Shown here piece by piece: positions 3,521-47,625 of a DNA stretch of 64,000 nt. The notes beneath the pieces are model-generated. The model did not search any database, was not told the DNA's origin, and was given only the letters and a program-made list of their open reading frames with translations. This stretch comes from Coriobacteriaceae bacterium (lineage in GTDB: Bacteria > Actinomycetota > Coriobacteriia > Coriobacteriales > Coriobacteriaceae): contig CADFMD010000002.1 of the NCBI GenBank assembly GCA_902835305.1, forward strand, positions 63,374-127,373. Direction: 5' to 3'. The first letter of the stretch is position 1, and every line of letters begins with the position of its first letter. The position numbers were made by a program, and so were the translations under genes.

Positions 3521-3669
3521 ATCGAGCTCCTCCCCCTCAGAAAACTTCAACATTTGTCCATTATTACCCAGTTCGGCAGGATTGCTGCGGACATATCGGT
3601 TAACGGAGAAAGGAGGAGATGCGGAGAATGGAATGCGTTGCAGCCCCATCCCAGCGACATCCGGGAAAT

Positions 3670-3967
3670 GTCTAGATCTGTAACAGGTGGACCGTCTTTA
3701 ACCTTCCAAATGTTACAGATCGAGATCTTTCGGCACCGCGTCCAACCTTTGTCTCAATCTGTAACAGTTAGAGCGGTTTTTGGCCGTTAGATGTTACAGA
3801 TTAAGATATTCTCCAGCCCTGTCGTCAAACGTCTAAATCTGTAACAAGTAGACAGGTTTTCGGCCGTTAGATGTTACAGATCGAGATATTTTAGCGGCAG
3901 CCAACCTTCTGTCTCGATCTGTAACAGTTGCGAGGCCAAACGGCCCCTTGTTGTTACAGATCGAGAC
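3670..3967. repeat. Hairpin-repeat array 1: four 57-bp palindromic units (arms GTCT[ACT][GA]ATCTGTAACA / its reverse complement) separated by 23-24 bp linkers
   Basis: Units at 3670-3726, 3751-3807, 3831-3887 and 3911-3967; 16-bp arms are near-perfect inverted repeats around a semi-conserved ~25-nt loop (..AGAC.GGTTTT.GGCCGTTAGAT). Confidence 0.9.
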
Positions 3968-5085: not shown

Positions 5086-5105
5086 CGTTGCCTCCGCTGA
5101 TAAAC

Positions 5106-5242
5106 GTCTTGATCTGTAACAGTTAGACGTTCTCCAGGCCCCTAAACGTTACAGATTTAGACAAACCAGCGGCGCCCAGGTATTCGTCTCGATCTGTAAC
5201 AGGTAGACCGGTTTTTTGTCCCTAAACGTTACAGATCGAGAC
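5106..5242. repeat. Hairpin-repeat array 2: two 57-bp units with a 23-bp linker
   Basis: Units at 5106-5162 and 5186-5242 with the same GTCTYGATCTGTAACA arms as array 1. Confidence 0.9.
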
Positions 5243-5282
5243 ATAAAGGCAGAAGGCAAGGCAGGCGACAACCGTCCATCCC

Positions 5283-5990: not shown

Positions 5991-6302
5991 GGCATCCTCC
6001 TCAAACTGATGGACCTCAATTTGAGCTTACGAGGAAGGTGGGCAGCCACGACCAGCGCGGGCAAAATAGGCCTCCGACTGCAAACCAGATACTGACCAAA
6101 CACTTGACGAAAAGCTTGATCGAAAATGCGCACCGCAACAAAACCGCAGGTAGACATAGACGGCCAACCCGCCCTTTTGAGCCAGATGCCCGCAGCCACC
6201 ACAGAAACAACAGGTGACCACAGCCCGAGAAGTCGACAAATGAACACCCGTACGTCGACAAACGAGCAAACTGCTCGCAAATCCGCAAGGAGTGTCCCCG
6301 AA

Positions 6303-6364
6303 TGCCGGCACAAAAGGAACGTCCCTAACTGTCGGCACTTAGGGACGTTCCTTTTGTGCCGGCA
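6303..6364. repeat. Perfect 26-bp-stem hairpin built from two inverted copies of the GCCGGCACAAAAGGAACGTCCC box (repeat family B)
   Basis: tgccggcacaaaaggaacgtccctaa / ctgtcggcac / ttagggacgttccttttgtgccggca; lies just 3' of gltD on its strand and may act as a terminator or operator. Confidence 0.85.
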
Positions 6365-12599: not shown

Positions 12600-12783
12600 C
12601 GCGATCCTCCCCTAGATATTTAGACAGTCAGTTGAATAGGCATAGTAGGGGCATCGGGGCGTCGTTGTGTTTCCCGCCCGTTTCGAAACAATCGCGTAAC
12701 GCACACCTTACGAGTGGGCACCGCCGACCTCAAGGGCGAAAACATAGGCCCCAAGTTCGACCTGCAAACTCACCTCTTCATAC

Positions 12784-13000
12784 ATCTCAATCTGTAACAG
12801 TAAGACCCAATTTCGACGACTAACTGTTACAGATTGAGATGTTTTCGAGAGACGGTTCCAAATGTCTCAATCTGTAACATGAAGGGCCGGTTTTTGCAGC
12901 TAACTGTTACAGATCGAGATTTTCCATAGGACCATTTCTTCCTGTCTTGATCTGTAACACCTAGACCCAATTTCCATCCCTAGTTAATACAGATCAAGAC
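12784..13000. repeat. Hairpin-repeat array 3: three 57-bp units with 23-bp linkers, in the divergent gltB/gpmA intergenic region
   Basis: Units at 12784-12840, 12864-12920 and 12944-13000; arms (A/G)TCT[CT][AG]ATCTGTAACA. Confidence 0.9.
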
Positions 13001-13165
13001 ATTTCGGCAATCCCCTTTCACCGTCCCATTCAAATACAACAATTTTGTTAGTCATGGTTAACTTTTTAGCATAAAACGGGTATCCTTTGCGGCGTCAAGC
13101 AAACGGCACGCACACCGTGCCAGATCAAGGAGGCCCCTATGGCGCACCGAGCAGACCGACAGACA

Positions 13166-15244: not shown

Positions 15245-15271
15245 TGGGACGGGGCACCTACCCAGGCAAAC

Positions 15272-15408
15272 GTCTCGATCTGTAACATCTAGACCCGCTT
15301 TTGATGTCTAGATGTTACAGATCGAGATCATTCCGAGGGACAGCTCCGTTTGTCTCGATCTGTAACAGGAAGACCCGTTTTGAGCCGTTAGACGTTACAG
15401 ATTAAGAC
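15272..15408. repeat. Hairpin-repeat array 4: two 57-bp units with a 23-bp linker, between convergent mntH and rubredoxin
   Basis: Units at 15272-15328 and 15352-15408; in unit 1 the stem extends into the loop (TCTAGAC...GTCTAGA). Confidence 0.9.
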
Positions 15409-15551
15409 AAAAGGTCGGCCGGACTCACAACAGACAGGATCGGCCAACAGCAACCGTGATCCCTTGGGGGCGGAGGAAAAGGGCCCCGGCCGAGAATTCG
15501 ACCGAGGCCCTTGGACAGAGCTATGTTCGGCTTTCGCCGTGTGTCTGCGAG

Positions 15552-20691: not shown

Positions 20692-20803
20692 CTCATCCCC
20701 GCTTTCTTGTATACCTGCCAAAAAGGGACAGGTTTATTTTGGTAGGTTTTACCTCTCAAATAGCAGGTAAGCGGGCAGCCGAGCAGACGGCAAGGTAGCC
20801 ACG

Positions 20804-32786: not shown

Positions 32787-33072
32787 CGCCCACGCCGTGC
32801 AGCTGCGGGCGAGTTAAACACAGATGATTGTACTTTAGCCAAACAAGGCGCGGCCTATACGGTCGACCTCGACCGCCACGTAATAACTATGACCAACCTG
32901 CCACAATGGGACAGGTTTATTTTGGCAAGTTTTATCTGAGCAAACGCCGTCTCTCTGCCATTTGGTGCCACGGGGACAGGTTAGCTTGCACCAATAAAAA
33001 GAAAAGGGCCGCGCACCCAAATGGATGCACGGCCCTTGTGCCATGAATGCGAGCGATTCCGCGGCGAGCTAT

Positions 33073-33498
33073 TTACTCAGCAGCCTCGGTGGTCTCGGCC
33101 TCGGCAGCGGCCTCCTCGACGGGAGCCTCTGCGGGAGCCTCGGCGGCCTGCTTGGCAGCCTCCTCGGCGAACTTAGCAGCACGCTTAGCCTTCTCGGCAG
33201 CCTTAGCCTCAGCGGCGGCCTTGCGAGCGGCCTCGGCCTCAGCAGCCTTGGCGGCCTTGGCAGCCTTGGCCTCCTCAGCCTTCTTGAGCTGGGCGGCAGC
33301 GGCGCCACCGAACTTGTCGGCGAAGCGCTGGACGCGTCCACCGGTGTCGACGAACTTCTGCTGGCCGGTGTAGAACGGGTGGCACTCGTTGCAAAGCTCG
33401 ACCTTCATCTCGGACACGGTAGCGTGCGTCTTGAAGGTGTTGCCGCAGGAGCACGTCACCGTGCACTCGACATACTGGGGATGGATACCCTGCTTCAT
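33073..33498 (-). CDS. rpmE: 50S ribosomal protein L31 (zinc-ribbon form) carrying a ~70-aa Ala/Lys/Glu-rich C-terminal tail
   Basis: [29 protein letters not shown] core; RBS AGGAG; terminator-like hairpin plus T-tract at ~33005-33045. Confidence 0.85.
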
Positions 33499-33721
33499 GG
33501 TAGGACTCCTTATTGGTCAGGCGCTGGTTACCGATCAGCGCATAAGGCGTCTTGGTTTCCGACCAAGACAACAAACTCGGCTATGGTACCACGGCGCCGC
33601 GCGTCCCACAAAAGGTTCACGGTCTTTTCGGAACGACACGAATCTGACCCATCGAAACACATCTCCACCGTTCCTTCAACTGGGAAAATGCCGTCCCCGG
33701 GGCCTGAGAAGGGCCCCGGGG

Positions 33722-33786
33722 ACGTTCGACTGACTGCGGGAACGGCCTTTCCGCTCAATGTGTTCGGCTGAGATCGGAAATCAACC
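33722..33786 (+). repeat. 65-bp direct repeat, copy 1 (left boundary of the 33.8-41.4 kb islet)
   Basis: 62 of 65 nt identical to 41351-41415: (a/g)cgttcg(a/g)ctgactgcgggaacggcct(t/g)tccgctcaatgtgttcggctgagatcggaaatcaacc. Confidence 0.85.
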
Positions 33787-33865
33787 AAACTGAACTAGGT
33801 TCAGTTGACATGGTTAAAAACGAGGGGCGACGCTTTTGCGTCACCCCTCGTCCCGGCCGGTTGCT

Positions 33866-34219
33866 TTAGTTGTACACACGGTAGTTACACTTGAACTGGG
33901 TTATGTGTCCATAGTTTGAGCCGTACCAACCCGATGTATAGCTGATTGCCTCTGCGCCTAGATAGTCGTAGCCCTTGTTGTAGCGAAGCTGACGGTAGGT
34001 CGTGTCGTACTCTGCTACGTAAAACGTGTCTCCAGAGAAGGCTTTGTACCGGTCCTTAACCGTCGAAGCCATGTACGCGGGTTCGACATCGCCTTTCTCC
34101 CCGTTGAGCGCATAGACGGGTGCCGCGATTCCGCATAAAGCCGTTGCCACGAGGATGGCGTAGACAGCCATGCGCGACGCATTGGACTTCAGCTGTTCAA
34201 ATAGTTTCATGTCATTCAC
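33866..34219 (-). CDS. Small secreted Tyr/Gly-rich protein (signal peptide plus ~85-aa mature part); candidate bacteriocin-like peptide
   Basis: N-terminal hydrophobic h-region ending ..PVYA; mature part YNKGYDYLGAEAISYTSGWYGSNYGHITQFKCNYRVYN; overlaps the upstream permease gene by 8 nt. Confidence 0.6.
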   Translation of the reverse strand: MNDMKLFEQLKSNASRMAVYAILVATALCGIAAPVYALNGEKGDVEPAYMASTVKDRYKAFSGDTFYVAEYDTTYRQLRYNKGYDYLGAEAISYTSGWYGSNYGHITQFKCNYRVYN

Positions 34220-36026
34220 CTCCCTCGTATGTATCGAGGTATTCCTGCTTGAGCGTCTGCGAGGACGACTTGATCTTTTCCACGAGCGTGCCGGCCTCGA
34301 TGAAGTAGAACGAGTTGGTGAGGTCTGCCAGGTCGTCGAGCAGATGGCTTGAAATGAGCACGCTTCGTCCCCGCGCCACCTCGCTGCGCATCGCGTCGCA
34401 GGAGGTTTTCCGCTTTCCCGGATCGAGGCCGTTCAGCGGTTCATCGAGGATGAGGTACGGGCAATCGGTCGATATCGCCATGGCAAGCTTTACCTGCTGC
34501 TTCATTCCTGTCGAGAGTTTACGGGTCGGCTTGTCGAGATATGGGGAGATTCCGAGGGAGTCGCAGAGCGAGTCGATGTCGGCGGCCGATTTCCACGCCT
34601 CCCTAACGAAAGCAAGGTGCTCGATGGCCGATAGCGTGGGATAGAGATCCGCGCCGCCCGAAGAGCTCAGGTAGACGAGTTCTGCAAATTCGGCTGATCG
34701 ACGTTGGCAGATTCCGTCTGCCGCCAGGCTTCCCGAGCGGATGCGGGCGGGAAATTGGCCCGACAGCGCTTCAAGAAGGGTGGTTTTCCCCGAGCCGTTG
34801 GGAGCAACGAGGCCCGCCGCCGTTCCCGGGCTCAGGAAAAGCGACCCGATTGAAAGTATCGTCGTGCTTCCGTATCCCACGCTCGCGTCCAGAAGCTCGA
34901 GCCCATGGTGCTTTTTCGCGGGTCCGGGCTGTTTGGGGGAACGTGTCGCAACGGCGCCGACCGCAAAAAAGACCGCGACGTATGCCAGGGCCACGGCAAG
35001 CATCGATGCGCTGCCTGAACCGGAGCCGATGAATTCTGTCGGGAAGCATCCTACGTAACCCGTTGCCTCGATAGGCGAGAATACGGCCAGCGGCAGGAGA
35101 TTGAGCGCGGCGTTATGCTCCAGTGCCGAATCGGACAGTAACGGGAATGCCGGGGCCGCGACAAGCAGCGCGGAGGTAAGGGGGCCCGCGAGGACGCGCC
35201 TCGTTGCGGTCGATAGGACGGCGGAGCAAACGGATATCAAGGTTCCGCCCGCAAGCAGCGCGAGAAGCAGGGCTGTGAAGACGTTTCCCGCGGTCGTGGT
35301 GGTAAGCGCGCCGTCATGGAAGAAGGCGATCGGGTACCCAATTTGCCCGAAGCCGTTTAGGGCCAAGGCGTAAATGCCCCCGGGTGCGAGGCCGGCGAGG
35401 AGCATCGCGGTCCCCGCGGCGATTATCGAAAACACGATCTGGATAAGGCGCCGGAATTTGGGCACGGGCGCCTTCGCCGCCAGGGTCGCAGGCCTTGTGG
35501 CCCCGAGCAGGAGTATCGACGAGAGAAGGAAGGGAATGAAGGGAAGGAAAGACGGCGCCGTGGCAATGGCGTAAGGCAGGAAGGAAAGGAATGGCAGGTC
35601 GTTTGCGGAGGCCGGGATATCCGTGATGCCGGAACTGCTCAGGGCACGGCAATATGCGAGCGCCGCGTCATTGGTCTCTCGGTCTCCCACGATGGACCCG
35701 GATTGGAAGCCTTCGCCCATGAGCGCGTAGTAGCTCTCGGCAGAATCGAGAAAGGCGGCGTCGGTTTGAGCGGCAAGGGCGGCGTTCGCGTATCTTGCAA
35801 GCTCCGCGTCGACTTGCTGCTCTGGAGATAGGTCTGTGCCGCTGGCCTGGGGCGCGCGCGTATTGAATGCGTCGACAAAGCTCTGCATGCCCTGTTTCAT
35901 AAAGAAGGGCCCGTAGATGGGTGAATTGAACGCAATGGGGACGGAAAAGGCTGCAGCGAGAACGAGCGTACAAATCCATACGGCCTTGTCTCTTAGGATT
36001 AGTTTGAGAAGAAGTCGACAGTACAT
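34212..36026 (-). CDS. Fused polytopic membrane protein (~390 aa) plus ABC ATPase (~210 aa)
   Basis: N-terminal half with multiple TM helices; C-terminal Walker A GLVAPNGSGKTT, signature LSTGMKQQ, Walker B LILDEP. Confidence 0.75.
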   Translation of the reverse strand: MYCRLLLKLILRDKAVWICTLVLAAAFSVPIAFNSPIYGPFFMKQGMQSFVDAFNTRAPQASGTDLSPEQQVDAELARYANAALAAQTDAAFLDSAESYYALMGEGFQSGSIVGDRETNDAALAYCRALSSSGITDIPASANDLPFLSFLPYAIATAPSFLPFIPFLLSSILLLGATRPATLAAKAPVPKFRRLIQIVFSIIAAGTAMLLAGLAPGGIYALALNGFGQIGYPIAFFHDGALTTTTAGNVFTALLLALLAGGTLISVCSAVLSTATRRVLAGPLTSALLVAAPAFPLLSDSALEHNAALNLLPLAVFSPIEATGYVGCFPTEFIGSGSGSASMLAVALAYVAVFFAVGAVATRSPKQPGPAKKHHGLELLDASVGYGSTTILSIGSLFLSPGTAAGLVAPNGSGKTTLLEALSGQFPARIRSGSLAADGICQRRSAEFAELVYLSSSGGADLYPTLSAIEHLAFVREAWKSAADIDSLCDSLGISPYLDKPTRKLSTGMKQQVKLAMAISTDCPYLILDEPLNGLDPGKRKTSCDAMRSEVARGRSVLISSHLLDDLADLTNSFYFIEAGTLVEKIKSSSQTLKQEYLDTYEGGE

Positions 36027-36179
36027 TTGGAAGCACCTACGTTCCTCAAAGAATCGTTAGATTAAAAGTAACAGACCGGATGAAGATACGTGCGACGGGG
36101 GCGAGGCGAATGGCTGAGCGGTATCGATACGCGGGTTCAACGGTATCACATTGGCCACATAGATTTTTAACTTGCATTT

Positions 36180-36929
36180 CTACCCGCCCTTTTCGTAGAG
36201 TCGCCGATACGTGCTTAGCGCACCCTCGGCGCGTCCGGCAGGCTTTGCGAAATGGGATCCAGGAGACTTCGGCGCAGCATCATCTTGCGGAATGCTTCTA
36301 ATGAGCCTCCCATCCTTCAAAAACAGAATCTCATCGCACAGCCTATCGACCGAATCCAAGATGTGGGATGACATGATGATGCACGTACCAGAATCGGCCA
36401 GCTTCCTGAGAATCTCGGAATGCAAGTCCACCCTGCTGGGGTCGAGCGCGTTCATGGGCTCATCTAATAGAAGGTACCGCGCGCCCGTCGCATACGCAAT
36501 CGCCAGAGTAAGCTGCTGCTTCATGCCCTGGCTCAGAGTGCGGATCCTCATCTTCGCGAACTCGCCTATCTGCGTTTGTTCCACTATCTCTTCGATATCG
36601 CGAGCATGCGGCCACATATCGCAAACCATCTTGAGGTGATCTTCCGCACGCAATCCGGGATACAGCAGCGTCCCCTCACCAGGTGCATAGAAGATCATAG
36701 AACGGACCTCTCTCGCACCCGTACCCTGCACCTCATCCAGAACGATGCTCCCGTCCACGCGAGGACCCGGCAAACCTGCCATCGCACGCAGCAACGTCGT
36801 CTTTCCATGCCCGTTCGGAGCGACGAGACCGTAGACCGTACCCGGGGCAAACTCAGCGTTCACCGAATCTACGAGCACCTTCTTTCCATAAGAGATCGTC
36901 AGCGTTTGAAGGTCAATCATCGAGATCAT
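36180..36929 (-). CDS. ABC transporter ATP-binding protein
   Basis: Walker A GLVAPNGHGKTT, signature LSQGMKQQ, Walker B LLLDEP; overlaps the upstream permease stop by 4 nt. Confidence 0.85.
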   Translation of the reverse strand: MISMIDLQTLTISYGKKVLVDSVNAEFAPGTVYGLVAPNGHGKTTLLRAMAGLPGPRVDGSIVLDEVQGTGAREVRSMIFYAPGEGTLLYPGLRAEDHLKMVCDMWPHARDIEEIVEQTQIGEFAKMRIRTLSQGMKQQLTLAIAYATGARYLLLDEPMNALDPSRVDLHSEILRKLADSGTCIIMSSHILDSVDRLCDEILFLKDGRLIRSIPQDDAAPKSPGSHFAKPAGRAEGALSTYRRLYEKGG

Positions 36930-39214
36930 CCCCTTTCGATCTTTGGAACACTCAGGCGCACCATCAACGGAGATACGGCGCCCAAGACCACCAGCAGAGC
37001 GCCCGATGCGCCGACGACCTCTCCAAAAGGCATCGCGTTCGTCCCTCGCCCAAGGAACCCAATCGTCCCCACCTGGGAAGCGGGATCAAACGAGGCGAAT
37101 GGAGCCAGCAGCGCGACGCCCATGCCCACGCTTTCAACATGAGCGCTCAACGAACCCAACACCAAGAGAACCGCGCAAACCATTCCGGTGACAACGGGGT
37201 TGCGGCTAATCGCTGCTGTCAACGCAGCGACGACGGAAATCACGCCGTATGCCATGACCAGCAACGGAATACTGCACAACACCGCCTCCCCCACCATGGA
37301 CGTTGTCGAAGCTCCCGCCCGAATGAGAGCGACGGGATACTCCGATCCACCCGCACCGTTCTTAATCACGGACACAACGACAGCGGGAACCATCGACACC
37401 AAAAGCAGCACCAAGCCAAGCAGGAGAGCCAGCGCAACAGCCGTCAGAAAACGCACATGCGCTGTTGCGGGGATCTGGAGAACCAGAAGGGAACGACACT
37501 GCAGGTGGGTGCACGCGAGCGATGTGACAACCACGGGCAACAGCAAAAATAAGGAGGGAAGCGCTGCCTGGAGATACGAAAGGAGGATTAATGGGGGCAT
37601 CTTCGTACTTAACTCGTAAACCTTGGGGTCCGGCAAGCTCGCGATCGACTCAAGCAGAAGGGCGCGCGCCTCCGCACGAGAAGGAGTCTCCGGCTCGATT
37701 CCAATCGATTGCAGGAGAGTCGCATCTGCCGCGCCCAGCTCACCTCGAGCGCGCTCGTACGTCGCAAGGCTTCGAAACCCCTCCGCAGGCATAGGCGCGT
37801 ACACGAAACCCGAAAGAGCATCCCGCATGTCTTCCAGGGCCGCTTTGCCCTCGACGTCCATATTCGCAGCGTTCTGCTCTAGATACCGATCTATTGAACG
37901 GAGCTCCCCATCCCTATACCGAACAGCGGAAACGTTATCAGCGTCAGGAAACATCTCGACCAGAGCCGGGGCCAGCATCGTCGTCGACATTGCAATCGCG
38001 CATACGGCGAGGGTAGGAGAACGCAGGAGCAGTTTCCCCATCGTTCTTACGTATGCAACGGCGGAGGCACAAGCGCTCGAACGAGTTGCCGTTCTCGATG
38101 CAGTGAAGGAACCTCTCTCAAGACAAATCGGGGATATCGGGCACGCGCAGCCGCTCTTTCCAGCAACGCAAAGCAGGCTAATTGCCAGCACCTCGATCCC
38201 GATTGCGCATACGAGGGCAATCGCGCCACGCTCGAAGCAAAGTCCAGGCAGATTCACTATCTGCGTTGTCGGGTACGGGCTATAGGCGCCGACGGTCAAC
38301 TCAGTGTTCGCATACGTAAGGGGATTCAACAGGGCGAACTCACGTAAAGCGATGGATCTTCCGTAATACCCGGGAACCATCGTCACCCCCATCAGGGCAC
38401 ATACGAACACGATTCCAAGCGTAGGGTTATTGGCAATCTTCACGGCAAGGTGAACGACAAGCGAGATGAACGCTGCCACCAAGAATTGCAAGATGGCCGT
38501 CTGCGCGAACACCAGCCAAGCCGGTTTGATAACCGGAGTCGCATATTGAATGTAGCCTATCGGATAGAACGGCGAGCCCGGGCCATTCTTCACAAGCGCG
38601 GCGATTATCCCTGGAAGATTGATGGCGAGGACGGCAAGCATTGCAAAAACACTCGCCCATACGCTCGATGCAACAAGTCTACCCAGCTCGCCCATCGGTG
38701 CCTGGATGATGAGCTTTTCACATTTGTTAAGACGCGCGGCAAGGAACGAGACGGCAACGGCCGTTGCGACCCATAGCAAGTACTCCTTCGATCCGTCATA
38801 ATAGGTGTACTCTCCATCCGATATCTGCAGAAACGGAAGTAGGGGAGAGAGCGGTGCCAAGATAAGACGTCCCGCGGCAAGAGGGTACAGAAGCGCGGGC
38901 ATGCTTGATGAAGAGGTATAGACACCGTCCTCCCCCGCATTCACAAGCGCATCCGCATAGGATGCTGACAATTCCTGCTCAACACGGGTTATTCCCGACT
39001 CGAGGTATTCGACCCGTCCGTCGATGCCAGCCGCGCTCCTGAAGACGGGCAGAGCACAAAGAACCATCAACGCAACAACGACAACACAGAGCGACCTGGA
39101 GGAGAGAAGCGACCTAAAGATCGCCTTCGAGATTTTGAGCATATTCATCGCCAACCTTAACCTCATCCAGTCGGAACAGAGGGGCCGAACAAAATGCTCG
39201 GCCCTTCCTCGCAT
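36926..39214 (-). CDS. Large polytopic membrane protein (762 aa, internally duplicated) of the kind found as immunity/permease partners in lactococcin-972-type loci
   Basis: Two similar halves, each with an N-terminal TM, a soluble region and a multi-helix bundle; no nucleotide-binding motifs. Confidence 0.65.
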   Translation of the reverse strand: MRGRAEHFVRPLCSDWMRLRLAMNMLKISKAIFRSLLSSRSLCVVVVALMVLCALPVFRSAAGIDGRVEYLESGITRVEQELSASYADALVNAGEDGVYTSSSSMPALLYPLAAGRLILAPLSPLLPFLQISDGEYTYYDGSKEYLLWVATAVAVSFLAARLNKCEKLIIQAPMGELGRLVASSVWASVFAMLAVLAINLPGIIAALVKNGPGSPFYPIGYIQYATPVIKPAWLVFAQTAILQFLVAAFISLVVHLAVKIANNPTLGIVFVCALMGVTMVPGYYGRSIALREFALLNPLTYANTELTVGAYSPYPTTQIVNLPGLCFERGAIALVCAIGIEVLAISLLCVAGKSGCACPISPICLERGSFTASRTATRSSACASAVAYVRTMGKLLLRSPTLAVCAIAMSTTMLAPALVEMFPDADNVSAVRYRDGELRSIDRYLEQNAANMDVEGKAALEDMRDALSGFVYAPMPAEGFRSLATYERARGELGAADATLLQSIGIEPETPSRAEARALLLESIASLPDPKVYELSTKMPPLILLSYLQAALPSLFLLLPVVVTSLACTHLQCRSLLVLQIPATAHVRFLTAVALALLLGLVLLLVSMVPAVVVSVIKNGAGGSEYPVALIRAGASTTSMVGEAVLCSIPLLVMAYGVISVVAALTAAISRNPVVTGMVCAVLLVLGSLSAHVESVGMGVALLAPFASFDPASQVGTIGFLGRGTNAMPFGEVVGASGALLVVLGAVSPLMVRLSVPKIERG

Positions 39215-39592
39215 CTAGTAGGTGCTATAGACAAATTGCCATTTATCAGTTGTGCCAAGAACACCACAGGAGCACATTGCAGCGAGGCGGGATTCCCTAT
39301 GATGCGCGGATCGGCGATAGCCATTTCGGTAGGAGATCGTCTTGTAAGAGATGTTGAACATCGAGATGCTGTGCCCGCTTACGCCGCGAGGACAGCTGTA
39401 GCTCCAGTAGGTATCGACGACGTCGTCCGTATACCCGAGGGGCTCAACGAGGGCACACTGGCTGCTCTCCTGGGAAGGAGGCATCGGGGTATCCGCAAAA
39501 GCGGGGGCTCCCGGCAGCAACAGACAAAGAGCGAGGCCGAGGAAAACCAAGAGCTTACACGACTTAACAGTACTGAACATAATCCTCTCCAA
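39215..39592 (-). CDS. Small secreted Cys/Tyr-rich protein (signal peptide plus ~95-aa mature part); candidate bacteriocin-like peptide
   Basis: Signal peptide LLVFLGLALCLLLPGAPAFA, then a mature region with 5 Cys and many Tyr/Trp; lies directly 5' of the 762-aa membrane protein gene. Confidence 0.6.
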   Translation of the reverse strand: MERIMFSTVKSCKLLVFLGLALCLLLPGAPAFADTPMPPSQESSQCALVEPLGYTDDVVDTYWSYSCPRGVSGHSISMFNISYKTISYRNGYRRSAHHRESRLAAMCSCGVLGTTDKWQFVYSTY

Positions 39593-39698
39593 TCTAGAGG
39601 GGTTTCGGTTACAGTATGCTGTGATTACTTGCCGGCAAAGTCAATTTAACATAAACTGTTAAAAAGTAACCTGAGTTTTTTAAATTCTTCGGAGGTTA

Positions 39699-40213
39699 TT
39701 ATGAGTTCCGACAATCGCACTCCCCGGCTTCATTCCTTCCGCATCGCATGTGCGATAGCCTCTGCGACCCTTTGCGCCACCGCCATCGCACAAGTGGCGT
39801 TCTCCTTAAAGCCAGCAATCGAAGTGCTCGACAACCCTGTAATTGCAGACTCCCCCGCGTATCCAGCCCTTGCGATCTCGACATTGGTCCCTGCCGTCAT
39901 CGGTATCGCTACGACCATCCTCAGCGCCGTTCTCGTGTGGACGATCAAGAGCGGAGACCCCTTCAAGAAAGGGTCTGCGACATGCTTGAAGGTGCTCGGC
40001 ATTCTCTTCGTTGTTCAAGCTGCCACCAGCCTCTACGCCGGCTCACTCAAAACCTCCGTTTCGATGTTTGGCGGCGAGGGGGCCGTCGGCGCCCAAGAGA
40101 TCGCTTCATCATTCGATTGGACCTCTCTGGTTCTCGGCATCGTCCTGTTCATGCTTTCCCAGCTCTTCTTGTACGCCCGAGAGCTGTACCTCGACTCCGA
40201 CGAGATTGCGTAA
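39699..40213 (+). CDS. DUF2975-type membrane protein, the usual partner of YozG-like HTH regulators
   Basis: Four TM helices in the characteristic arrangement; followed 9 nt later by the XRE regulator. Confidence 0.6.
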
Positions 40214-40222
40214 GGAAACGCC

Positions 40223-40474
40223 ATGCCCGTAATTGTTCGCCTCGACAAGATCATGGCCGAGCGAAAGATTTCCTCGAACGAACTTGCCGAAAGGATTGGA
40301 ACCACGCCCGTGAACCTGTCCCGTATTAAAAAAGGGCATATTCGCGGCATTCGCTTCAACACACTCGAGCAGCTATGCCTCGCCCTTCGTTGCCAACCCG
40401 GAGACCTTCTCGAAGTCATGAGCGAAGAGGATGCCCGAAAGGAGTTCGGACTCGATTGGTCCGCCGAGGATTAG
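40223..40474 (+). CDS. XRE-family (YozG-like) helix-turn-helix transcriptional regulator
   Basis: MPVIVRLDKIMAERKISSNELAERIGTTPVNLSRIKKG..IRFNTLEQLCLAL matches the YozG consensus. Confidence 0.85.
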   Translation: MPVIVRLDKIMAERKISSNELAERIGTTPVNLSRIKKGHIRGIRFNTLEQLCLALRCQPGDLLEVMSEEDARKEFGLDWSAED

Positions 40475-41200
40475 AGGGCGGTCGTACTCGCCCTGCACAC
40501 GGGGATGCGAATCGGCGAGGTCTGCGGCCTTCGGTGGTGCGATGTGGATTTCGAGACGGGCCTGATCTCGATCAGACACTCGGTGGCGTACGCGAAGGGA
40601 ATGGGTTCGTTCATCAAGGACACCAAGACCCATGACGCCAGGGGTATCCCCATCGACCCGGTCGGCCTACTCCCCTTCCTGAAGGAGACCCACGAGATCG
40701 ACTGCGGAAAGCTGCGCTTGCGCGGCCTTACCGGGGCGGTCGAGATCGGGGACTGCTACATCCTGTCGGAGCCGGGCGCGACCTTCGCGACGACAAGCTA
40801 TATCCGCAGGGCGTTCAAGACGTTCTCGGAGACCAACGGCCTCATGGGCACCAACGACGAGCTGATCACGTTCCACGGCCTTCGCCACACGTTCGCAACG
40901 CAGTGGATCCGCCAAGGCGGCGATATCAAGGCGCTCCAATCGATCCTCGGCCACAAGGACGCCATGGCGACGCTCAACGTCTACGCCGACATCGAGCCCA
41001 TCTCCAAAATCCATAACATGCTGCGCGCCACGCCGTGCCTTTGGCGCGGGCACCTCGGGCCGAGGGTCGATCCGGGTCCCATGTTCCAACAGAGGATCCA
41101 GGAGTCCATCGAGACGCTCCAGGCGTTCGGCTACGGCATCACCGAGCCGGACGACCGAAATATCGCCATACGCGACGTGAAGACGAACAGTTGGCTCTAG
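40475..41200 (+). pseudogene. Tyrosine recombinase (phage-type integrase), catalytic domain only; the N-terminal ~150 aa are missing
   Basis: ALHTGMRIGE (Arg I), HGLRHTFAT (H-x-x-R), LGHKD, ATLNVYAD (Tyr nucleophile); reading frame continues straight from the XRE gene across a single TAG at 40472-40474. Confidence 0.75.
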
Positions 41201-41350
41201 CTCACCGAGTACGCGGCAGTGCTGGGCCCATCCCAACTGAGGTCACGGTGGTCCGATAGGGGCGCCGCCCGCGGCATGCGCCGCGGAGCGGTATCCCCTA
41301 CCGAAGGGCGGGGATGCCCTCCGCTTCCAGTTCGGAATCAGCCGTCGGAG

Positions 41351-41415
41351 GCGTTCGGCTGACTGCGGGAACGGCCTGTCCGCTCAATGTGTTCGGCTGA
41401 GATCGGAAATCAACC
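41351..41415 (+). repeat. 65-bp direct repeat, copy 2 (right boundary of the islet, 150 nt past the integrase remnant)
   Basis: See 33722-33786. Confidence 0.85.
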
Positions 41416-41596
41416 CAACACGAGCCGGACACGCGCCAGACGGCTCTTCCCCGTGCGGCCTTCCCCCTTACGCTCATGTTGCAGGCATGTAACGCCGCAG
41501 CGAGCGCGCCTTTTTTGCGCCAGACAGGTACAATGATGAACACTGTACCGTAGCGGAGCGCCCCGCGCGCGCCGCAATCACGCGAAAGGGTTTCCC

Positions 41597-41884
41597 ATGG
41601 CCGAGATCTCGTCCTCCCGTATCGTCATCACCGTCCTTGGCAAGAACCGCCCCGGCATCGTCGCCGGCGTCACCCGTGTCCTAGGCGAGGCCAACGTCGA
41701 CATCCGCGACATCACGCAGTCCATTATCGAGGACATCTTCACCATGACCATGCTGGCCGATACCGCCGAGTCCAAGCTCGACTTCGCCGAGCTGCAGAAG
41801 GCGCTGGCCGAGGCCGGCGAGCTTTCGGGCGTCAACGTGTCCATCCAGCGCGAGGACGTCTTTAACTTTATGTACCGCCTGTAG
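41597..41884 (+). CDS. ACT-domain protein (UPF0237 family)
   Basis: RIVITVLGKNRPGIVAGVTRVLGEANVDIRDITQ is the ACT fold signature; 95 aa. Confidence 0.75.
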   Translation: MAEISSSRIVITVLGKNRPGIVAGVTRVLGEANVDIRDITQSIIEDIFTMTMLADTAESKLDFAELQKALAEAGELSGVNVSIQREDVFNFMYRL

Positions 41885-44320: not shown

Positions 44321-44422
44321 TCACTGGGGACGTTCTTGAATGACTAGTCGTTGGGGACAGTCTTCGCGAAAAAGCTGCTGCAAGGACTGTCCCCCACTGC
44401 CGGCAGAAAAGGAACGTCCCCA
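44321..44422. repeat. Family-B GC-rich repeats: one inverted copy (44321-44362) and one direct copy (44382-44422)
   Basis: cactGGGGACGTTCTTgaatGACTAGTCgttGGGGACAgtc and caaggactGTCCCCcacTGCCGGCAgAAAAGGAACGTCCCC. Confidence 0.8.
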
Positions 44423-44431
44423 TCTGCCGGA

Positions 44432-47309: not shown

Positions 47310-47625
47310 AAGTCAATAGCCATTGTATGCCCAAACGATGGGTCGGGAATACACCCCCTCCGCTTAACGGCACACGCCGCTTGGCGCAATGGGGACAGGT
47401 TGCTTTGTACCAATGACAAGGAGTGTCCCAAAGTGCCGGCACAAAAGGAACGTCCCCAAGTGCCGCAGAGTGGATAATCTCCCACTTTGAACCCCCAAGC
47501 AGGCCAAAAACGGAAGATTATCCACTCTCATTCTGTGGGCACTCATTTAAGTCTGTCCCCAATGAGTGCACCTAACTGCCACCTACAACAACGGAAGCGC
47601 CGATGTCTTGGCAACGACAGCGAAA

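Follow-up and report, generated by a model that had tools for sequence, protein, structure and literature searches.

Within a 64,000-nt stretch from a Coriobacteriaceae bacterium (contig CADFMD010000002.1, positions 63,374 to 127,373; hereafter the window), an islet of ~7.8 kb lies in the spacer between rpmE, the gene for ribosomal protein L31, and a gene for an ACT-domain protein. Its cargo consists of ABC-transporter and secreted-protein modules. A preliminary description, made from the sequence alone, had taken the 65-nt direct repeats that bound the islet and the tyrosine-integrase gene beside one of them as signs of an integrated element with attL/attR ends. Our results show that the segment is indeed an acquired, strain-variable insertion, and that the repeats at its borders are what remains of the machinery that brought it. 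They derive from an insertion sequence (IS) of the IS30 family, and the islet is most probably a decayed, now immobile composite-transposon-like insertion in the rpmE-ACT spacer.

The direct repeats are ends of an IS30-family insertion sequence

The two repeats (33722-33786 and 41351-41415) are identical in 62 of 65 positions and have the same orientation and positions as first described. Without gaps the similarity stretches to 74 nt at 93% (33717-33790 vs 41346-41419). They form the single pair of this repeat family within the window, and the match is far beyond chance. A 25-nt core of the repeat was searched in one genome per species, which gave at least 119 stretches, nearly all labelled Collinsella. 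Among the matches listed there were at least 124 copies of the repeat: 58 at the rpmE-ACT locus (30 with the ACT-side flank and 28 with the flank on the side of a 117-aa gene of the islet) and at least 65 at 60 other, unrelated flanks. A dispersed repeat had been named as the alternative to attL/attR ends, and this was correct, as many copies in Collinsella genomes are unrelated to this islet. Many of the matches were situated at contig ends, and contigs break inside the repeat.

When the oriented copies were stacked, the DNA upstream of the 74-mer was conserved for more than 100 nt and everything past ...GGAAATCAACC diverged. The conserved upstream side carries an open reading frame (ORF) of 450 aa with a match to HTH_38 (1.9e-11) and a weak match to rve, scoring 100.9 bits on NF033563 'IS30 family transposase' (cutoff 80). 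Its DDE residues are D254, D316 and E355, giving the spacing D-61-D and D-38-E; for comparison, the quoted spacing is D-(54-61)-D-(33)-E (PMC2516522), and the D-E distance is thus 5 aa above that figure. Four full copies defined the parent IS as an element of 1,637 nt (CCTTGATT...ATCAACC) with a single transposase ORF of 430-450 aa. The ends are imperfect inverted repeats of ~27 nt, in which, once two non-complementary bases at the tips are set aside, 18 of the first 27 positions match. Both figures are in line with IS30-family elements, which have one ORF, ~1-1.7 kb of length and imperfect terminal repeats of 20-30 bp. Close homologues of the transposase number in the thousands within sequence clusters, mostly on contigs of 1.5-1.6 kb, and such IS-length transposase contigs are the signature of a collapsed multi-copy repeat. 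Several IS contexts were also found inside single assemblies (e.g. DBGDDN01, with L086 and L110 (two copies), and CAAFQK01, with L039 and L113). The 65-mer is the right inverted repeat (IRR) plus subterminal DNA of an IS30-family IS that is dispersed through Collinsella.

In the window both copies are end fragments of this IS, as identified by BLAST and alignment. The left repeat is part of a 141-nt scar (33646-33786, plus strand) corresponding to the last ~141 nt of the IS, and by alignment to the four full copies and BLAST to one of them (L113:1153-2789) it matches IS nt ~1497-1637 at 88.7%. This scar contains a GC-rich hairpin (33694-33722) and the IRR, and it terminates with ...GGAAATCAACC. 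The right repeat belongs to a 71-nt scar (41345-41415, plus strand), which matches the last ~71 nt of the full IS copy (nt ~1567-1637) and again includes the IRR. Its terminus at 41415 is the right edge of the islet; the alternative island found at this locus in L008 regains homology at 41421-41422.

Full copies of the IS can be flanked by long, perfect target-site duplications (TSDs), of 14 bp in L077 (GTTCGCGCGTGGGC) and of 13 bp in L164 (TTCCAGACGTCGG). Three duplications contain palindromes (AGCT, CGCGCG and GACGTC), and these cores fit the liking of the IS30 family for palindromic targets, three cases being too few for statistics. A relative of IS30 with long duplications is thus at work throughout the Collinsella aerofaciens complex, whose assemblies it breaks up.

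The 225-nt non-coding 3' end of the IS (e.g. L113:2564-2789; window 33694-33722) holds the GC-rich hairpin, whose arms vary between copies with the pairing largely kept. On the opposite strand the hairpin is followed by a short T-run, which may block inward transcription. In the left scar the hairpin has been kept, placed between the operon of the islet and the promoter region of rpmE, and a scan for sigma-70-like promoters around the left junction found none.

Strain comparison reveals complementary scars and a target-site duplication

Contigs encoding the exact ACT-domain and L31 proteins of the window provided 20 loci on long contigs, which were sorted by BLAST against the window into five configurations. 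Type A is the full, window-like form with both repeats. Type B (L003, L005, L015, L018, L140 and L141) is without 33642-34212, a segment that comprises the left repeat, a terminator and the 117-aa gene. Type C (L002/L012 and L017) is without 36400-41370 and is clearly derived, because its deletion runs from within the ABC ATPase gene into the right repeat; the right IS remnant left after this later deletion is ~45-49 nt. Type D has an unrelated island of ~10.8 kb in the rpmE-ACT spacer (L008 and L019, which are one contig), and type E is empty (L010, CP084004.1). Neither type D nor L010 has the 65-mer, and an empty site with a single 65-mer, which the preliminary description had proposed to look for, was not among the five configurations.

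The conserved DNA on the rpmE side stops at ~33641 in every strain type, and conserved DNA resumes at ~41416-41421 on the ACT side. The left repeat had been placed in the 5' leader of rpmE. Because the conserved rpmE-side DNA stops at ~33641, the repeat sits within inserted DNA, at least 175 nt past the leader motif. The GC content of the islet is 0.50-0.60 vs 0.61-0.65 in the flanks, a check that had also been proposed; this lower GC is a foreign composition and was counted in favour of an insertion.

At the left junction of type B strains, IS nt 1-44, i.e. the left inverted repeat (IRL), are fused to window position ~34225 at the 3' end of a 604-aa ABC gene. Because the left scars of types A and B are complementary, the two types appear to keep different pieces of one full IS copy that once stood between the rpmE flank and the islet. 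The orientation of this lost left copy was IRL outward and IRR toward the terminator of the 117-aa gene. One further contig, L129, starts inside the IS adjoining window position 33787.

The outer ends of the scars are flanked by a duplication. Adjoining the IRL scar, the left junction in type B strains reads C[G/A]ACA[C/T]GAGCTGG[A/C]. In L140 and L141, CAACACGAGCTGGA stands both to the left of the IRL scar and to the right of the IRR scar (14/14 identical), and in other type B strains the two flanking copies match at 11/13 (e.g. L003). By junction comparison, the right copy of the duplication in the window is the 14 bp CAACACGAGCCGGA at 41416-41429. A left copy (CGACACGAATCTG, 33634-33646) was located by junction alignments exactly where the rpmE-side conserved DNA joins the IS scar. 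Type D (L019, L165 and L166) consists of the rpmE flank, a single CAACACGAGCTGGA and CACG, the start of the ACT-side flank of the window. Because type D reads straight through this single CAACACGAGCTGGA, the two flanks were contiguous, with one target copy, before the insertion. The empty site was reconstructed from type D and the divergent L010.

The spacer also showed other rearrangements. The alternative ~10.8-kb island (L008:1-9824 with L019:1-9857 as one contig, L165 and L166) encodes an N6/N4 DNA methylase, a 904-aa ResIII/TnsA-like-endonuclease protein, a UvrD-like helicase, a UvrD_C/PD-(D/E)XK nuclease protein and several ORFs without matches. It is flanked by a 13-bp duplication (CGAGCYGGACACG, 12/13) that is offset by 5 nt from the islet target, and in the comparison of its junctions no IS remnant was present. 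L095 lacks 420 nt (window 33786 | 34206), among them the terminator and the 117-aa gene. The deletion begins precisely where the left IRR scar ends, and it resembles an adjacent deletion made by an IS from a solo end. In L038, a second, related IS30-like end type (...GCTGAGATTGAAAATCAACC) abuts the left junction at window position 33635, and in L163 (100-140) 12 nt separate this second end type from the IRL of the main IS that follows it. It seems that further insertions are drawn to IS ends or to the islet target.

The integrase is a truncated passenger

The integrase of the islet (40475-41200, plus strand) is a tyrosine-recombinase fragment whose catalytic domain covers positions 36-168 of 172 of the Pfam profile. 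The ORF extends from 40505 to 41200, in a frame that is open from 40475, and stops 150 nt short of the right repeat. It aligns to residues 211-377 of a 405-aa integrase and thus misses ~210 N-terminal aa, in agreement with the truncation first described. The catalytic Arg, HxxR, His and Tyr are retained, and the whole N-terminal DNA-binding half is missing. Orthologues at the islet locus are uniformly short (197-296 aa), and no cognate full-length integrase with core-binding and catalytic domains was found. Nucleotide homology to a 351-aa integrase relative in another context spans exactly 40474 to 41253. This 351-aa homologue, on a 3.1-kb contig, is also the best candidate for a progenitor with an intact integrase; it is probably incomplete itself, and there is no IS nearby. 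We conclude that the integrase fragment is a passenger relic, or cargo debris, that did not integrate the islet, and that its position beside the right repeat is incidental.

The XRE regulator gene upstream and the integrase fragment (40223-41200) are in one frame with a single stop codon (40472-40474) between them, and the integrase homology starts right there.

A decayed composite transposon is the most probable origin of the islet

The ancestral unit would have had the order TSD, left IS, cargo (the secreted-protein/ABC modules, the DUF2975-XRE pair and the integrase fragment), right IS or at least its right end, TSD, with the two IS copies flanking the cargo in direct orientation. A transposase of IS30 type would have acted on the two outermost ends, the IRL of the left copy and the IRR of the right one, and the whole unit would have entered the rpmE-ACT intergenic spacer, whereby the 14-bp target (CAACACGAGCYGGA) was duplicated. 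In an alternative form of this boundary, a full left IS and a right-end fragment would have flanked the cargo in place of two full copies. Subsequent deletions would then have taken most of both copies. In the structures observed, the left IS retains only its last 141 nt in the lineage of the window; in type B lineages it retains only its first 44 nt, with the adjacent 117-aa gene lost as well; and the right IS retains 71 nt at all islet-bearing loci except those of type C. Two IS copies that were complete at the start, and the transfer of the entire unit by a single transposition, are inferred.

The islet was compared with the features expected of a composite transposon. Of the IS copies that should bracket the cargo, scars are what is left (IRR-141 or IRL-44 at the rpmE side, IRR-71 at the ACT side); the complementary left scars imply one full left copy, and the right copy is known as an end fragment. 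One TSD stands at the outer IS ends (14/14 in L140 and L141, 11/13 in L003), and its length is that of the TSDs of single IS copies. The same unit at a second location was not seen among the matches listed, which is a weak negative. The proposal that the element is now fixed in place agrees with our data: the islet in the window is immobile because two direct right ends and no transposase are left, and the integrase is truncated.

Several points weigh against this explanation. A clean duplication was found in just 2 of ~11 full IS copies having both flanks. The copies without one are mostly on short metagenome contigs that may be chimeric or recombined, and we took them as uninformative rather than contrary. 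The usual duplication of the IS30 family is 2-3 bp (PMC5821093), and instead of such a short TSD the perfect ones here are 13-14 bp. A long duplication is no bar to membership in the IS30 family, because there is a precedent in IS1630 (see below), and by this analogy the 13-14 bp would mark a variant of the family and not an exclusion from it. The left duplication copy of the window itself is degenerate (9/13 to the right copy). An uninterrupted spacer (...TTTTCGGCAC-CAACACGAGCYGGA-CACGCGCCAGACGG...) from a close relative was not found in two metagenome scans, of which the first gave nothing and the second gave two D-type contigs and four chance matches in unrelated organisms. In none of the genomes examined was a complete IS seen at either edge of the islet. 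Finally, no second locus with the islet was seen: among the matches listed, the 58 copies of locus type are all at rpmE-ACT, and the mobility of the islet as a unit would follow from a single event.

Among the other explanations, an IS-mediated cointegration is unlikely, though our data do not separate it from composite transposition. Here a lone IS would have inserted first, with the 14-bp duplication as its result. A circular donor with the cargo and one copy of this IS (a plasmid, an excised element or an IS-bearing circle) would then have recombined with it, by homologous recombination or by the IS30 dimer pathway, and the decay would have followed in the way described above. This route predicts the architecture that we observed, with direct IS scars and the TSD outside; the multi-copy IS offers homologous partners, and repeated IS insertions have occurred at the islet site (L038). 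On the other hand, its expected intermediate, a lone complete IS at the target, was seen in none of the loci examined.

We consider it very improbable that two IS copies inserted independently beside an island that had arrived otherwise, e.g. by a once-intact tyrosine integrase, with the 14-mer match arising by chance or from the target itself. Insertions have struck the spacer repeatedly (the second IS type at 33635 in L038, and the type D 10.8-kb island only 5 nt away), and the target has an internal ACACG repeat, both of which would favour such a history. However, the 14/14 match falls precisely on the outer ends of IRL and IRR, for which the chance is ~4^-14; each of two independent insertions should have left a duplication of its own, yet the inner junctions (33787 onward and upstream of 41345) show none; and type D has the 14-mer once in uninterrupted DNA.

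The attL/attR interpretation, in which the 65-mers are att cores from a tyrosine-integrase integration at an atypical attB upstream of rpmE, accounts for the direct repeats, the lower GC and an integrase 3' end pointing at the right repeat, yet we give it almost no credence and regard it as refuted by the criteria that the preliminary description itself had set: the repeat is an IS30-family end found in at least 60 other genomic contexts, islet-free configurations are without the 65-mer, the IS homology runs 70 nt beyond the left repeat, to 33646, so that the junction does not coincide with the outer edge of this repeat, type B strains have the islet without the left 65-mer, the integrase is without its whole DNA-binding N-terminal half, and the junctions carry the target duplication of a DDE transposase and no att core.

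Comparison with known systems

The closest analogue of the history that we propose for the islet appears to be the decay of Tn6330 (ISApl1-mcr-1-pap2-ISApl1), in which two direct copies of ISApl1, a member of the IS30 family, flank mcr-1 (Snesrud et al. 2018, PMC5821093). Decay of Tn6330 deletes the flanking ISApl1 copies, in the single-ended forms the downstream IS is reduced to its final 42 or 90 bp with the IRR, and loss of the IS traps the cargo (PMC5821093). The islet resembles this system in the direct IS30-family copies, in the TSD outside the unit, in the deletions that leave right-end fragments (42/90 bp there and 71/141 nt here), in the immobilisation of the cargo by IS deletion and in the ragged deletion joints that differ between lineages. 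The two also differ. The host here is a gut actinobacterium, the unit is chromosomal, and the cargo is ABC-transporter and secreted-protein genes vs a resistance gene. The duplication is 13-14 bp here vs the 2 bp of ISApl1 (PMC5821093), no intact version and no second insertion site were seen here among the loci and matches compared, and one lineage here has an IRL scar in place of a right-end one.

For the long duplication, the parallel is IS1630 of Mycoplasma fermentans, an IS30-type element (Calcutt et al. 1999, cited in PMC7648426) with duplications of 16-26 bp (PMC3317919) and, as reported, a preference for targets with inverted repeats. The IS described here is like IS1630 in having an IS30-family transposase and long duplications at some copies only. 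This target preference may be paralleled by the palindromic cores of the three duplications here. IS1630 differs in its unrelated host and sequence, and in that the duplication length here is apparently fixed at 13-14 bp.

With integrase islands (islands of the tRNA type and prophages) the islet shares a strain-variable segment of lower GC, direct repeats and a tyrosine recombinase at one end. It differs from them in that the repeat is missing from islet-free sites and dispersed genome-wide, the integrase is a fragment, and the junction duplication is a TSD of the transposase type.

Gene content of the islet and its neighbourhood

The gene content first described, two secreted-peptide/ABC modules, a DUF2975 gene with its XRE regulator and an integrase catalytic domain, was broadly borne out. 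Next to the left scar, a second palindrome (33788-33806) adjoins the IS end and is followed by a hairpin and T-run (33812-33850, minus strand), which from its sequence is probably the intrinsic terminator of the minus-strand islet operon. The 117-aa gene (33866-34219, minus strand; 114 aa from ATG) encodes a putative small secreted protein, as judged by its translation and hydropathy, with an N-terminal signal or transmembrane (TM) segment and with no match in Pfam or NCBIfam. Its start and the stop of the ABC gene upstream overlap, and it is missing in the type B strains and in L095. The upstream gene (34212-36026, minus strand) encodes the 604-aa protein, a membrane domain of ~6 hydrophobic segments fused to an ABC ATPase (PF00005, 1.3e-18).

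The other module starts with a 249-aa ABC transporter ATPase (36180-36929, minus strand; PF00005, 1.7e-21), for which the best NCBIfam match was the lantibiotic-protection ABC subfamily TIGR03740, at 124 bits and below the cutoff of 310. A 762-aa polytopic membrane protein with many hydrophobic segments (36926-39214, minus strand) is its presumed permease partner. It is 26% identical to the membrane domain of the 604-aa protein (E = 1e-10); the membrane domains of the two transporter modules are homologous. A second small protein of 125 aa (39215-39592, minus strand) has a signal-like N-terminus and is likewise a candidate secreted protein. The paralogy of the 117-aa and 125-aa proteins was considered and is unsupported (E = 0.024). 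The 417-nt segment that holds the 125-aa gene (39207-39623) is present in the window, L007, L140 and L141, and missing in most other islet-bearing strains. On the plus strand follow a four-TM membrane protein by hydropathy (39701-40213), which is weakly DUF2975-like (PF11188, E = 3e-4, 21 bits, below the Pfam cutoff of 27), and an XRE/HTH_26 transcription regulator (40223-40474; PF13443, 4.9e-21).

Outside the islet, the conserved left flank is formed by rpmE (33073-33498, minus strand; PF01197). The L31 protein is 141 aa long, about twice the usual length via a C-terminal extension, and its called length is the same in all related genomes. Directly upstream of rpmE lies an L31-Coriobacteria ribosomal-protein leader (33506-33541, minus strand; Rfam RF03128, 35.1 bits vs a gathering score of 33). 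An Rfam scan of the whole window gave two tRNAs and this leader and no match at either repeat, and a regulatory RNA at the repeats was therefore rejected. The right flank, conserved in all configurations, is formed by the ACT-domain gene (41597-41884, plus strand; PF13740/PF01842).

The islet neighbourhood is rich in IS elements. Across strains, elements of the IS110 and IS21 families lie at varying positions a few kb downstream of the ACT and citrate-synthase genes (L001:12909-16608, L003:16018-17112, L006:15955-19168, L009:13662-14045 and L010:12857-14023). The window further contains ten units of ~80 nt (TGTCTCGATCTGTAACAG...GTTACAGATCGAGA), each an inverted repeat, in tandem clusters of two or three (3669-3904, 5105-5259, 12783-13017 and 15271-15425). 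There are also two small dispersed families with palindromic cores, GCAAGGAGTGTCCCC...AAAAGGAACGTCCC at 6285-6362, 44380-44430 and 47416-47466, and ACCTGCCAAAAAGGGACAGGTTTATTTTGG at 20713-20754 and 32896-32937, the latter also found beside IS copies in other genomes (L023 and L035). These two families may be elements like repetitive extragenic palindromes (REP) or miniature inverted-repeat transposable elements (MITE), or preferred IS targets.

Implications

A speculative and rather doubtful extension is that the scars are still active, i.e. that the 7.2-kb cargo of type B, with its IRL (44 nt) and IRR (71 nt), can be mobilised in trans, that solo right ends are engaged and that the spacer is a self-perpetuating hotspot. 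The ends of the type B cargo are an intact-looking IRL and IRR inside a perfect 14-bp duplication. The deletion at the IRR terminus in L095, the second IS in L038 and the type D island with a duplication of the same length and no IS remnant may also point in this direction. If true, the type B cargo would be a giant non-autonomous transposon moved in trans by resident IS copies, and cargo exchange in the rpmE-ACT spacer would be the work of a relative of IS30 whose stagger is atypical and fixed at 13-14 bp.

Our results point to no new mechanism and are useful mainly as annotation and as a cautionary example. Direct repeats and an integrase of textbook appearance turned out to be two insertion-sequence scars with a passenger fragment, and the real junction signal, the 14-bp transposase duplication, is visible only by comparison of strains. 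The rpmE-ACT spacer is a recurrent insertion site that holds either ABC/secreted-protein modules or a methylase/helicase-nuclease island. If the islet is, as we think most probable, a decayed IS30-family composite unit, the locus would record in a very abundant human gut commensal a birth and demise of a composite transposon like the one known for mcr-1.

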